Source of the DNA: a bacterium
Lineage (GTDB): Bacteria > Patescibacteriota > Minisyncoccia > Minisyncoccales > CG1-02-41-26
DNA length: 64,000 bases
Direction: 5' to 3'
NCBI GenBank assembly: GCA_030616605.1
Contig: JAUWWY010000001.1
Location: forward strand, 4,251-68,250
In this document: positions 24,208-37,074 of the stretch, piece by piece
Position numbering within the stretch: position 1 is the stretch's first letter
Layout: each line of letters opens with the position of its first letter
The notes under the pieces: model-generated
Told to the model about the DNA's origin: nothing
The model's database searches: none
Seen by the model: the letters and a program-made list of their open reading frames with translations, nothing else
Translations under genes and position numbers: made by a program

Positions 24208-24312
24208 CTGAAATCCTCCTTGTTTATGTTATTAAGGTTCTACATGAAATAATTTGTTTTACACAAGTTTGTTTATTTTAGAACACTTTACTTCTTTTGT
24301 CAACTTGTAAGT

Positions 24313-24343
24313 AAAAACCCGAGATATTGCGTCTCGGGTTTTT
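24313..24343. terminator. Intrinsic terminator after the 24361-24744 gene
   Basis: Stem acccgaga/tctcgggt is flanked by an A-run and a T-run. Confidence 0.8.
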
Positions 24344-24360
24344 AATTGAGTTTGTCAAAC

Positions 24361-24744
24361 CTAATCTTTGTCCATTAGGTCTTTTTGGATTTCAGAACAA
24401 GCTTCGCTGAGGAGTTCTTTAGTTCCCCTGACCAAAATGGCATAGTAGGAAGGTTCAGTTCGCGACTCAACCTTAACTGAAACCGAGAAGAACAGGTGGT
24501 CTGCCATTATCCGTGCTTCCTCGACTCTCAGACCCAAAAGGTAGGGTAAGACTCTACAGGAAATAGAGGACTCTGCCGGCCAATTGGCAGGATGGACTTG
24601 GACGTACTCGTTATCTTTGATTTCAAGTCTCAAACCAAGATTATGAGGTTTCCAACCTTCCACCCTAATCAGACAGGCCTCATCCAGGTGAGCTACAAAC
24701 TCACAGACAGCGTAAGTAAGCTTATCTATTGTTCTTTCATTCAT
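24361..24744 (-). CDS. Hypothetical 127-aa cytoplasmic protein
   Basis: It is GC-rich, with minus-strand TTGACA-N16-TATAAT and AAGGAGAA upstream. No recognised domain. Confidence 0.55.
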   Translation of the reverse strand: MNERTIDKLTYAVCEFVAHLDEACLIRVEGWKPHNLGLRLEIKDNEYVQVHPANWPAESSISCRVLPYLLGLRVEEARIMADHLFFSVSVKVESRTEPSYYAILVRGTKELLSEACSEIQKDLMDKD

Positions 24745-25026
24745 TTTTTTCTCCTTTTCCTTATTCTTTTTTTAACTTGAAATTCTGAAACTATTATAGC
24801 AGATTCTAAATATTTGTCAAATTTAAGAAAGACATTTACAAGGTCTCAAAAACCTGCCAAAATGAAAGTAGATATCCCAAAATGCCAATTTCCAAACAAA
24901 AAATTAAAGAAAACAAACAGGGGTTCTAAAATGAAACACAAAAATATACAAAAAATTAATCGCAATTTTATAATTGATAAAAAAGAATTTAATAAATTTT
25001 TAGATAAAATAAGCACAAAATAATTT

Positions 25027-33630: not shown

Positions 33631-34494
33631 ATGAAATGGAAGAGAAAAATTTTTATCTTGATTATATTTTTCCTGATTCTTGCTAATTTTTTTATCTGGA
33701 AAGAAATCTTTGCTTTATCAAGAGGATTTTTAAAAGTTATCTTTTTTGATATTGGTCAGGGTGATGCGATTTTTATTGAAACTTCCCAGGGACATCAAAT
33801 ACTTATTGACGGGGGACCAAGCGGCAAGAAGTTATTGGAGAAGTTGTCTAATCAGATTCCTTTTTGGGATAAGACGATTGATTTGGTGATTTTGACTCAT
33901 CCTGACTATGACCATCTGGCAGGATTGAATTATGTTTTAAACAGATACAAGGTGGAAAATATTTTATGGAACGGAGTAGAAAAAGATACTAAAACCTTTG
34001 GATACTGGAAAGAAAATTTAGATACAGAAAGGAAAGAGGATAAAGCCAGAGTTGTAATTGCCCAGAAAGGTCAAAAAATCAAAGCCGGAAAAGTTGAAAT
34101 TTTTATTCTCTATCCTTTGGAAAATCTGGAAAACAAATTTTTTAAGGGAACTAGTAATGATACTTCTATAGTTGCCAAGCTTTTGTTTTTTGAAAATACT
34201 TTTTTATTTACCGGTGACATAACTAAAAAAGTAGAAAAAAAGATTTTAGAATTTGATCTGGGAGCGACTGTTTTAAAAATAGCTCATCATGGAAGCAAAG
34301 TTTCAACTTCAAAAGAGTTTTTAGAAAAAGTTCAACCCCGGCTTGCTGTAATTTCAGTTAGTGAAAATAATGCCTATGGTCATCCCCACCAAGAGGTATT
34401 GAGTAATCTTGAAGAATTTGGTATAAAGGTTTTAAGAACAGACCAAGAAGGAGACATTAAAATTATTCAAGGCTATGGAGTTTCCAATTTTTAA
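33631..34494 (+). CDS. Membrane-anchored metallo-beta-lactamase fold protein (ComEC C-terminal domain type)
   Basis: It has an N-terminal TM helix, FFDIGQGDA, THPDYDH (HxDxDH-type) and a late HHGS. Confidence 0.85.
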   Translation: MKWKRKIFILIIFFLILANFFIWKEIFALSRGFLKVIFFDIGQGDAIFIETSQGHQILIDGGPSGKKLLEKLSNQIPFWDKTIDLVILTHPDYDHLAGLNYVLNRYKVENILWNGVEKDTKTFGYWKENLDTERKEDKARVVIAQKGQKIKAGKVEIFILYPLENLENKFFKGTSNDTSIVAKLLFFENTFLFTGDITKKVEKKILEFDLGATVLKIAHHGSKVSTSKEFLEKVQPRLAVISVSENNAYGHPHQEVLSNLEEFGIKVLRTDQEGDIKIIQGYGVSNF

Positions 34495-35539
34495 AACTAA
34501 AATTGAAGGAGTTTCTCAAAAATTTGACCTGACTGATTTTAGTCAAAGGCAAGCTTATTTTGAATTGAAAGCCGGCAAGGAGATTGAAAAACTGAGAGAA
34601 TATTTGAAAGATAAAAGCTTTATTGCTTATCTCTTGGGTAAAAAGAATTCTGGCAAAGGCACTTATGCCAAAATGTTTAAAGAGGTAGTTGATAAAGATA
34701 GGATAGAGCATTTTTCTATCGGCGATATGATTAGAGAACTTGATAAGGTTTTAAAAGATAAAAAAAAGAAAAAGGAATTAATTTCCTTTTTAGAAAAAAA
34801 TTATCGGGGCTTTCTACCTTTAGAAAAAATAATTTCTTCTTTAAAGAAAAGAAGCACTAAAACTCTTTTGTCAACTGAATTGATTCTAGTTTTAGTTAAG
34901 AAAGAGATAGCCAAAAGAGAGAAAAAAGCTCTTTTTATTGACGGTTATCCAAGAGATATGGACCAGGTTTCTTACTCATTGTTTTTTAGAGATTTGATTG
35001 GTTATCGAGATGACCCTGATGTTTTTATTCTTATTAATGTTCCAGAAGCAATTATTGATGAGAGGATAAAACATCGGGTAGTTTGTCCCCTTTGCCAAAC
35101 TTCAAGAAATTTAAAAGTTCACCGAACAAAAACGGTGGAGTATGACCAAAGAGAGAAAAAATTTTATCTCATCTGCGACAATCCGGATTGTAAAGGAGCA
35201 AGAATGGTTCAGAAAGAAGGAGATGAATTGGGTATAGAATCAATTAAGAAAAGATTAGAAAAAGATGAAAAATTAATAAAACAAACTTTCTCTTTATATG
35301 GTATTCCAAAAATTCTTTTAAGAAACTCTGTTCCAATAGATGAAGCTGAAAAGCTTGTTGATGATTACGAAATTACTCCAGGATATAGCTATGAATTAGA
35401 AAAAGATTCAGGAAAAGTAAAGATAATTGAAAGACCCTGGCAGGTTCTTGACGATCAAGGAATTCTTTCTTACAGTTTAATGCCCCCGGCAGTAGTAGTT
35501 TCTTTGATTAAACAGATGGTAGGAGTTTTTAATCTTTAA
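34475..35539 (+). CDS. Elongated adenylate-kinase-like protein (NMP kinase paralogue)
   Basis: It has the P-loop GKKNSGKGT, IDGYPRD, and a zinc LID CPLC...CDNPDC. It carries ~50-aa N-terminal and ~110-aa C-terminal extensions relative to Adk. Confidence 0.6.
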   Translation: MEFPIFKTKIEGVSQKFDLTDFSQRQAYFELKAGKEIEKLREYLKDKSFIAYLLGKKNSGKGTYAKMFKEVVDKDRIEHFSIGDMIRELDKVLKDKKKKKELISFLEKNYRGFLPLEKIISSLKKRSTKTLLSTELILVLVKKEIAKREKKALFIDGYPRDMDQVSYSLFFRDLIGYRDDPDVFILINVPEAIIDERIKHRVVCPLCQTSRNLKVHRTKTVEYDQREKKFYLICDNPDCKGARMVQKEGDELGIESIKKRLEKDEKLIKQTFSLYGIPKILLRNSVPIDEAEKLVDDYEITPGYSYELEKDSGKVKIIERPWQVLDDQGILSYSLMPPAVVVSLIKQMVGVFNL

Positions 35540-35549
35540 TAAATATCTA

Positions 35550-35579
35550 TTGACAATCGTCTTTGACAGGGTATATAAT
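35550..35579 (+). promoter_or_regulatory. Sigma70-type promoter of the sRNA candidate
   Basis: TTGACA (35550-35555), 18 nt, TATAAT (35574-35579). Confidence 0.6.
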
Positions 35580-35585
35580 AAAAAT

Positions 35586-35729
35586 AGCCCTGTCTTTTTC
35601 TGTTAAAGTTTCTAGACAAACTTTTACAAAAGGGAAGGTAATATTTGTTAAGTCATTAATGACTTAACGTGAACCATCCCCCCTGGATTATCTCTAGGAT
35701 GTCAATTGCAGAAAAAGACAGGGTTTTTT
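35586..35729 (+). ncRNA. Stand-alone structured sRNA candidate (~145 nt), class unknown
   Basis: 5' ccctgtctttttctg (35588-35602) pairs perfectly with cagaaaaagacaggg (35709-35723), followed by TTTTTT. It has internal hairpins and lies between convergent genes. Confidence 0.5.
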
Positions 35730-36906
35730 AATAGTCAATTAAATCCATTTTAGAAAGACTGGCTTGAATTTGAACGGCAATCTTAAGTTTTTTTTCAACT
35801 TCTTCTACTTCTTTCAACTTTGCTTTTGTTTCAGGATGTTTTGGTAGAAAGACAGCGCAGCAATCTTGATGAGGTAAAATTGATATATCGTAAGTTCCAA
35901 TTTTTTTAGCTTTTTCAATAATTTGAAACTTATCCTCTCCGATTACTGGTCTTAAAACAATCAAGTTTGTAGCTTTTTGAATTGCTCTTAGGTTTTCTAA
36001 GGTTTGAGAGGCAACCTGGCCAAGATTTTCTCCAGTTACAACTGCTTTTATCTTTTCTTTCTCGGCTATTTTTTCAGCAATTCTAAACATTATTCTTCGG
36101 TACAAAATTACTCTCAATTTTGCCGGGCTTTTGAGAAGAATTTCTTTTTGGATATCAGCAAACGGAATTAAGTAGAGTTTTGAATTAAATTGAAAATTAT
36201 TGAGTATTTTAACGATTTTTTTTACTTTATCAATTGAGGCTCGATTGGTGTAGGGGACAGCGTGAAAATGAAGAAAAACAGTTCTCAAACCTCTTTTCAT
36301 TGCTAAAAAAGCAGCAACCGGCGAATCAATTCCGCCAGAAAGAGCAACCAGAGCTTTTCCGCTTACGCCAACTGGTAGGCCCCCAAGTCCGGCTATTTTT
36401 TCAAGATACAAAAAAGCATATTTTTCAACTATTTCAATAAAACAAGTAATATCAGGATTTTTTAAATCAACCCCTTTTTTCATTTTTTTCAAAACAAACT
36501 CTCCGACCTTCTCGTTGATTTCTGGAGAAGTTAAAGGAAAATCTTTTTTTGAACGCTGGGTTGAAATTTTAAAAGTTTTGAACTCTGCACCAGAGCCTTT
36601 GGCACGAAGCGAAGCTTGGGCAAGTTTTTCCAATGCCTTTTTTTGTATTTCTTTAATTTCCTGTTTACAATTTTCAGCAAAAGCAAAATAGACAATGCCA
36701 AAAACATTTTTCAAAGATTTTTCCAATTTTCTTTGTTCTGCTTCTTTCAGCAATTCAATAATTATCCTACCAGAAATTCTTTTTACATATTTAAAATCAG
36801 TCGGCCTCAAAGCCGACTTAATATTTTTAACCAATTGCTCTTCAAAAATCTTTCGATTTTTCCCTTTGAGTCCTATTTCTCCGTAGTGACAGATGACAAA
36901 AGCCAT
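35728..36906 (-). CDS. thiI: tRNA 4-thiouridine synthase / sulfurtransferase ThiI
   Basis: It has the N-terminal YGEIGLKGKNR (ferredoxin-like/THUMP region) and the PP-loop SGGIDSP. Confidence 0.9.
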   Translation of the reverse strand: MAFVICHYGEIGLKGKNRKIFEEQLVKNIKSALRPTDFKYVKRISGRIIIELLKEAEQRKLEKSLKNVFGIVYFAFAENCKQEIKEIQKKALEKLAQASLRAKGSGAEFKTFKISTQRSKKDFPLTSPEINEKVGEFVLKKMKKGVDLKNPDITCFIEIVEKYAFLYLEKIAGLGGLPVGVSGKALVALSGGIDSPVAAFLAMKRGLRTVFLHFHAVPYTNRASIDKVKKIVKILNNFQFNSKLYLIPFADIQKEILLKSPAKLRVILYRRIMFRIAEKIAEKEKIKAVVTGENLGQVASQTLENLRAIQKATNLIVLRPVIGEDKFQIIEKAKKIGTYDISILPHQDCCAVFLPKHPETKAKLKEVEEVEKKLKIAVQIQASLSKMDLIDY

Positions 36907-36919
36907 TTTTTTTTATTTG

Positions 36920-36990
36920 AGCGGGTGAAGGGAATCGAACCCTCGTTACAAACTTGGAAGGTTTGAGTTTTACCACTAAACTACACCCGC
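36920..36990 (-). tRNA. tRNA-Gly (anticodon UCC)
   Basis: The minus strand reads gcgggtg ta gttt agtggta aaac t caaac CTTCCAA gtttg taac gaggg ttcgatt ccctt cacccgc t, a full cloverleaf with no encoded CCA. Confidence 0.9.
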
Positions 36991-37002
36991 CAATTTATCT
37001 TT

Positions 37003-37074
37003 TCGGGGTGCCGGGGGTTGAACCCGGGTCACAGGCTCCCCGAGCCTGGATACTAACCGTTATACTACACCCCG
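37003..37074 (-). tRNA. tRNA-Pro (anticodon GGG; anticodon loop UCGGGGA)
   Basis: The minus strand reads cggggtg ta gtat aacggtta gtat c caggc TCGGGGA gcctg tgac ccggg ttcaacc cccgg caccccg a, a cloverleaf with a weak D-stem and no encoded CCA. Confidence 0.85.

Follow-up and report, generated by a model that had tools for sequence, protein, structure and literature searches.

Within the window (the whole 64-kb stretch of DNA analysed herein), a structured element occupies the plus strand between a gene for a 354-aa protein of the adenylate-kinase fold and thiI, which, as the preliminary description had it, converges on the element from the minus strand, its stop codon overlapping the terminal T-run (Table 1). 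The features listed in that description between positions 35550 and 35729, namely a promoter, an inverted repeat, hairpins, and a palindrome, are all present where it placed them and lie far beyond chance expectation. The 2 promoter hexamers match the consensus at 12 of 12 positions and are separated by a spacer of 18 nt; exact TTGACA-N16-18-TATAAT arrangements occur twice in the 64 kb, against 0.09 expected. The 15-mer ccctgtctttttctg (35588-35602) finds its perfect 15-nt complement at 35709-35723, directly followed by T6, with the arms 106 nt apart and the terminal inverted repeat extending to 21 nt at 90%. No other inverted repeat of the window has arms separated by more than 14 nt, the remaining six being compact, terminator-type palindromes. 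Enclosed by the arms are the hairpin aaagttt/aaacttt (35605-35611/35618-35624) and the helix gggaaggt/accatccc (35632-35639/35673-35680), both of which are in the sequence, together with a 22-nt palindrome (35647-35668) that corresponds to a perfect 9-bp hairpin with a 4-nt loop, UUAA, which is itself self-complementary. The 15-mer arm and the palindrome are each unique within the window, and no open reading frame (ORF) of more than 34 aa was found within the element. The fold of 144 nt of the plus strand reaches -56.1 kcal/mol, compared with -27.5 +/- 3.9 kcal/mol for dinucleotide shuffles (z = -7.4).

Table 1. Features at the locus of the 6S-like RNA gene and matches of the Rfam 6S model (RF00013) to the RNA family.
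Feature	Position	Strand	Evidence or remark
Gene for 354-aa CPR-specific adenylate-kinase-fold protein	34475-35539	+	Pfam ADK, AAA_17; syntenic upstream of the RNA
-35 hexamer TTGACA of the RNA's own promoter	35550-35555	+	Equivalents kept in the family
-10 hexamer TATAAT	35574-35579	+	Ends 6 nt 5' of the first modelled RNA nucleotide
RNA gene, 6S-like, ~140 nt	35586-35725	+	Family model R2, 62 bits, E ~3e-12; RF00013, 31.9 bits
Outer closing stem, 5' strand	35586-35602	+	Pairs with 35709-35725; family helices 1-2 are 91%-95% paired, 13/13 pairs compensatory
Inner closing ("downstream", P2-like) helix, 5' strand UUCUAGA	35610-35616	+	Pairs with 35693-35699; family helices 3-4 covary; predicted pRNA template
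Central bubble, 5' strand CAAACUUUUACAAAA, 15 nt	35617-35631	+	Aligns to the 16-nt Rfam 6S bubble
Apical ("upstream") domain	35632-35680	+	Base helix GGGAAGG/CCAUCCC (35632-35638/35674-35680), internal loop, 9-10-bp hairpin 35647-35668
Central bubble, 3' strand CCCUGGAUUAUC	35681-35692	+	Family consensus CCCACuUggA, the most conserved block
Inner closing helix, 3' strand UCUAGGA	35693-35699	+	Common to the alternative 3' hairpin
Outer closing stem, 3' strand	35709-35725	+	Fold, covariation, inverted repeat
U-tract 3' of the closing stem, likely termination site here	35724-35729	+	Overlaps thiI stop codon (other strand)
Alternative local 5' hairpin AAAGUUU-CUAGAC-AAACUUU	35605-35624	+	Lineage-specific; comparable hairpin in 14/65 member MFEs
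Alternative 3'-bubble hairpin CCUGGA-UUAUC-UCUAGG	35682-35698	+	In the window MFE, pair probability 0.99; competes with the inner closing helix
thiI	35728-36906	-	Stop codon overlaps the T-run
RF00013 targeted scan, window	35584-35728	+	31.9 bits, E = 2.5e-5
RF00013 targeted scan, L082			30.4 bits, E = 5.7e-5
RF00013 targeted scan, L040			25.8 bits, E = 8.4e-4
RF00013 targeted scan, L033			24.1 bits, E = 1.8e-3
CPR, candidate phyla radiation; MFE, minimum free energy structure; pRNA, product RNA.

The promoter spacer of the element holds an extra TTGACA (35563-35568, plus strand), 5 nt before the -10 hexamer, which is not obviously conserved in relatives. The other perfect promoter of the window, TTGACA-N16-TATAAT at 24793-24820 on the minus strand, is located just 5' of a 127-aa ORF (24361-24744, minus strand) with a strong ribosome-binding site and a terminator at ~24309-24347.

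The product of the upstream gene has a 4-Cys lid and is extended at both its N and C termini. Its score against TIGR01351 is 69.9 bits (cutoff 168), and it is far under every NCBIfam adenylate-kinase cutoff; we refer to this product as the kinase-like protein. More than 3,800 homologues were found, the best 120 of which are 69% to 79% identical to it (self-match excluded), and some of the homologues are named Patescibacteria, Nealsonbacteria, or Pacebacteria.

A thiI-based genome scan gave few useful loci, but brought in one from a metagenome-assembled genome labelled Saccharibacteria (L004), in which nhmmer detected a homologue of the element (E = 1.7e-5). That homologue lies directly 3' of the kinase-like gene, not at the thiI end, and has its own TTGACA-17-TATACT promoter as well as a separate terminator hairpin. 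We collected 80 related metagenomic loci by a scan with an alignment of the kinase-like protein. Alignments produced by MAFFT alone (A2-A4) were mis-registered in the 3' half, and therefore a covariance model was built from a single member (R1) and iterated to a model of 48 sequences (R2). R2 matches at 46 to 139 bits, on the same strand and just 3' of the kinase-like gene, were obtained in at least 65 of the 80 loci; minus-strand scores are 60 to 100 bits lower across the family, which settles the strand of the RNA. The copy described above is the sole R2 match in the window, on the plus strand only. The preliminary description had suggested a search for the element beside thiI in related genomes: the element is indeed conserved in related CPR loci, but it accompanies the upstream kinase-like gene rather than thiI. 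Among the loci without an R2 match, four end less than 110 nt past the kinase-like gene. In five others (L031, L063, L064, L068, and L092), the RNA is apparently absent from the usual place despite enough downstream sequence, and in one locus (L028:3622-5430) the RNA lies about 1.8 kb away from the kinase-like gene, with at least one gene in between. The synteny between the kinase-like gene and the RNA is strong yet not absolute, given these five RNA-less loci and the gap in L028.

The promoter is conserved along with the RNA: it matches at least 10 of 12 consensus positions in 55 of 65 members, with 11 or 12 matches in 47, and the spacing between the end of the -10 hexamer and the start of the closing stem is exactly 6 nt in 52 members. 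From this constant distance, transcription of the RNA is predicted to start at ~35585-35587. The downstream neighbours vary, being thiI in the window, often a convergent tRNA gene, and otherwise diverse genes. Most members have a dedicated intrinsic terminator hairpin 5 to 30 nt past the stem, and in a minority, the window included, a U-run follows the stem directly; the closing stem and U6 probably also end the transcript in the window genome. Judged by its conservation in at least 65 related loci despite differing downstream neighbours, the element is a real small-RNA gene with its own promoter, as the preliminary description had proposed, and one conserved across many of the ultrasmall bacteria of the CPR/Patescibacteria.

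Several further observations concern the surroundings of the RNA gene. Genes for tRNA recur near it: tRNA-Gly(UCC) and tRNA-Pro(GGG) follow thiI in the window (36919-37074, minus strand), a convergent tRNA lies ~20 to 370 nt past the RNA in L019, L024, L033, and L049, and several more loci have tRNA-like 3' ends there. One contig carries a second, inverted copy of the RNA at its end (L054:3683-3819, plus strand, and L054:3859-3948, minus strand), with a terminator hairpin between the copies; because the second copy is an exact reverse complement, it probably arose by fold-back during assembly rather than by a true duplication. In two other loci, homologous inserts of ~270 nt interrupt the 6S-like gene (L071:3708-3976 and L093:3615-3884), one of them in the closing stem and the other immediately following CACCCACC in the 3' bubble strand, and a partial copy is found at L024:1845-1931. 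The two inserts, which are 72% identical over 220 nt and stand in opposite orientations, are each bounded by 29-nt terminal inverted repeats and contain internal hairpins; they resemble a mobile element of these CPR genomes, either of the MITE type or an intervening sequence.

As a consensus, the family folds into an unbranched rod composed of a closing stem, a central bubble, and an apical stem-loop, with 38 pairs in 7 helices. The single-sequence minimum free energy structures (MFEs) of 18 members are likewise mostly unbranched rods, and ideas of a cloverleaf or 4-way junction, a tRNA-like RNA, or a Y RNA were dropped after the homologues had folded in this way. The covariation that the preliminary description had suggested testing for is evident: in the 65-sequence alignment, which was fitted to the model, 91% of the cells are paired and compensatory changes occur at 35 of the 38 rod pairs. 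The covariation score of the rod is 0.578, compared with 0.07 to 0.12 for partners slid by 1 to 3 columns, and none of 500 shuffles reaches the observed values. Independently of the model, an outer stem and an apical hairpin rich in compensatory changes were recovered by RNAalifold from a plain MAFFT alignment, and folding each sequence alone, without constraints, gave the inner closing helix in 59 of 65 MFEs. Beyond the outer stem and the apical hairpin, RNAalifold on alignment A2 gave no more than a dubious UUCU/GGGA helix without compensatory changes. The median member is 135 nt long (range 117 to 145), with a closing arm of 29 nt per strand, a bubble of 15 nt on the 5' strand and 13 nt on the 3' strand, and an apical domain of 46 nt, in which GGG/CCC hardly varies and covariation extends over the whole hairpin (family helices 5-7). 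The most conserved residues of the family are aGGGAg at the 5' edge of the apical stem and acaCCCACuUggA, which runs from the 3' edge of that stem into the 3' bubble strand.

The inner closing helix excludes both the local 5' hairpin and the 3'-bubble hairpin of Table 1. In the window sequence, the conformer with the two hairpins is predicted at -56.1 kcal/mol and the rod, with the inner helix enforced, at -52.4 kcal/mol, a gap of 3.7 kcal/mol in favour of the two hairpins; that the free RNA is predicted to prefer them over the rod counts against the 6S reading. The three-hairpin fold of the preliminary description is the local MFE of the window sequence, but not the fold of the family. Its pseudoknot between CUAGA and UCUAG fared similarly: the pairing is real, but it is nested, corresponds to the inner closing helix, and is exclusive with the two local hairpins, so the pseudoknot reading was abandoned. 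The 3'-bubble hairpin, predicted at 6 bp in the window (35682-35687 with 35693-35698), was assessed by constrained folding of each sequence, as its register in the model-fitted alignment differs from one sequence to another. When pairing of the 5' strand is prevented, a hairpin of at least 4 bp is predicted in 35 of 65 members; the mean number of pairs is 3.26, and 1.60 in a control with a shuffled bubble strand. By these predictions, the alternative hairpin is frequent in the family, but not universal.

The architecture pointed to 6S RNA before any database support. A default scan of the window at the Rfam gathering thresholds returned two tRNAs only, and a first relaxed scan of 351 nt of the window gave no 6S match, only weak miRNA and sRNA noise. 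In a relaxed scan of 12 homologous loci, the single match on the RNA itself was to the 6S/SsrS family (RF00013), in L040, at full length and 25.8 bits. Targeted scans with laxer filters placed RF00013 at the top in 4 of 5 members, aligned over model positions 1-187, with strand and boundaries equal to those of the family RNA (Table 1), and returned no match to it in the fifth (L046). Because the filtering depends on how much sequence is searched, the match in the window emerged only in a scan of 151 nt. The Rfam check proposed in the preliminary description accordingly returned nothing for 6S in its default and 351-nt forms, and 6S below the gathering score in its targeted form. Every RF00013 score lies under the gathering score (46.4), and this accounts for the RNA being missed by the default scan and by annotation pipelines. 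Rod-shaped RNAs can draw ~20 to 25 bits from unrelated hairpin models (e.g., MIR7502, 25.2 bits in the 351-nt scan); no Rfam family besides 6S recurs across the members scanned.

The alignments to RF00013 place the most conserved residues of the family on those of 6S RNA. The bubble-flanking GGGAG and CACCCAC(C/U)UGGA are the most conserved residues of the Rfam 6S consensus, and the GGGAG and CCCAC(C/U)UGGA of our family align to its upper-case GGGagc and CCCACCUggaA, the latter with high posterior probability. Taken as a pair, aGGGAg and acaCCCACuUggA at the bubble edges fall on GGGagc and gcaCCCACCUggaA of that consensus. The apical base of the window RNA aligns to GGGagc...gcaCCC, and the 5' bubble strand, rich in A and U, to the bubble of the 6S model (16 nt).

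Compared with E. coli SsrS and B. subtilis 6S-1, the RNA shares the rod of closing stem, central bubble, and apical stem, a bubble of matching size (15/13 nt here vs 16/13 nt in the Rfam model), GGGAG and CCCACCUGGA bordering the bubble, and a gene of its own under a strong sigma-70-type promoter; a hairpin between the 3' bubble strand and the 3' side of the inner closing helix is predicted for it as well. It differs in length: the family, at 117 to 145 nt (median 135), and the window RNA, at ~140 nt, lie outside the ~160 to 200 nt typical of 6S RNAs and fall short of the roughly 180 to 200 nt of these two, with ~7 to 9 nt per closing-stem strand and the distal apical extension missing relative to the Rfam consensus. 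The genomic setting differs as well, since the RNA adjoins a CPR-specific kinase-like gene, whereas E. coli 6S RNA is encoded between zapA and the gene for 5-formyl-THF cyclo-ligase. The preliminary description had set 6S aside as too short, a judgement that we reverse: RF00013 is the only matching Rfam family, at full length and on the right strand. A short natural 6S RNA of ~135 nt is plausible, because 6S-1 RNAs cut down to short arms remain capable, in vitro, of the whole cycle of binding, pRNA synthesis, and release (PMC8876501). These engineered B. subtilis RNAs resemble the RNA described here in having a central bubble flanked by short helical arms, but they are laboratory constructs with ~10-fold lower affinity (PMC8876501), whereas ours is a natural, conserved family.

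Taking this evidence together, we consider it likely that the element is a gene of the ssrS type and that its product is a divergent 6S RNA, reduced in size, of a CPR/Patescibacteria bacterium. 6S RNA holds RNA polymerase (RNAP) by imitating an open promoter. By analogy with the 6S RNAs of E. coli and B. subtilis, the rod would mimic an open promoter and occupy the active-site cleft of the housekeeping sigma-RNAP holoenzyme, leading to its sequestration. Known 6S RNAs are rod-shaped, ~200 nt long, and bind the housekeeping holoenzyme, and synthesis of their pRNA runs from the 5' bubble into the downstream helix P2 (PMC8876501). In the RNA described here, RNAP would, once NTPs rise, take the 5' bubble strand together with the inner closing helix (~35603-35621) as the template of a short pRNA. 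This pRNA presumably would start within ~35617-35622 and be complementary to ~35603-35621, for example, 5'-GUUUGUCUAGAAAC... or 5'-GUCUAGAAAC.... Its synthesis would unzip the inner helix (35610-35616/35693-35699), the freed 35693-35698 could pair with 35682-35687 into the 3'-bubble hairpin, and the refolded RNA would leave the enzyme. In E. coli-type 6S RNA, release is driven by a hairpin that the 3' bubble forms with the 3' strand of P2 (PMC8876501), and the predicted alternative hairpin matches it in topology.

Among the alternatives, the one that retains some weight, although we think it unlikely, is a CPR-specific, rod-shaped small RNA other than 6S with a different partner (e.g., a ribonucleoprotein, or a regulatory RNA tied to the kinase-like gene), the likeness to 6S being convergent or due to chance. 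The sub-threshold Rfam scores, the member without a 6S match (L046), the shortness of the RNA, and its unusually tight synteny with one CPR-specific gene would all fit such an RNA, as would a reciprocal search with R2, filters off, of the E. coli ssrS locus (401-584 of L099), in which nothing was found. We know of no 6S RNA gene in the neighbourhood of this CPR-specific kinase-like gene. However, four divergent members each pick 6S as their sole significant full-length match, the most conserved residues of the family are those of 6S at the same structural positions, and the bubble sizes agree.

A naturally minimal 6S-type RNA with a mechanism other than the textbook one, in which the free RNA would be pre-folded in the two-hairpin, "released-like" conformer and need remodelling for RNAP, and in which the RNA and the kinase would form a nucleotide-pool-sensing module controlling RNAP, or the kinase-like protein would be the real partner, strikes us as quite improbable; the tight linkage of the kinase-like gene and the RNA constitutes a separate, unexplained lead.

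That the element acts only in cis, as a long bidirectional terminator or a 3'-UTR structure for the kinase-like gene and thiI, is very improbable, even though T6 follows the stem on the plus strand and a T-rich run lies right past the thiI stop on the minus strand. The 12/12 promoter, conserved in the family between the upstream stop codon and the stem, speaks against it, as do relatives in which thiI is missing near the element and a separate terminator follows the stem; in addition, the conserved unpaired blocks and the apical domain would be purposeless in a terminator. The conserved promoter, varied neighbours, and separate terminators rule out a terminator-only or thiI-specific role, including the bidirectional thiI terminator that the preliminary description had kept in reserve.

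We give next to no credence to a divergent SRP (4.5S), Y, or Ms1-type RNA, which likewise pair their 5' and 3' ends into a rod, as none of these families appeared at E <= 10 in the Rfam scans, and the apical stem and loop vary in sequence and contain neither a GNRA tetraloop nor an AGCA-type motif of domain IV. The earlier dismissal of SRP is thereby upheld: bacterial small SRP RNA is a hairpin-like rod of ~100 to 115 nt, but our RNA lacks its conserved domain IV (GNRA loop, symmetric and asymmetric loops), has a hypervariable apical hairpin, and gives no Rfam match to it. Ms1 is much longer (~300 nt), binds core RNAP, and is restricted to Actinobacteria, and no sequence or model match to it was found here. 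Ms1 is described as a 6S-like RNA of Actinobacteria that interacts with RNAP and is structurally related to 6S (PMC9130861). A MITE or other mobile-element remnant is equally hard to credit: it would explain the perfect terminal inverted repeats ~106 nt apart, and MITE-like inserts exist in related loci, but the element is single-copy in the window, lacks target-site duplications, shows compensatory changes, and occupies a constant syntenic position in loci at which the neighbouring protein is only 63% to 79% identical.

To our knowledge, 6S RNA is a near-universal global regulator of bacterial transcription, and in the searchable literature we found no paper linking it with CPR, Patescibacteria, Saccharibacteria, or related terms. 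If the 6S assignment is correct, it would add a missing housekeeping RNA to the annotations of CPR genomes, in which standard Rfam thresholds miss the family, and would supply a covariance-model seed of at least 65 sequences. So assigned, the family is a miniaturised form of the known 6S RNA and no new class. It would represent a natural minimal 6S RNA of ~135 nt, in agreement with the in vitro dispensability of the long helical arms, and one convenient for structural work on RNAP-6S complexes.
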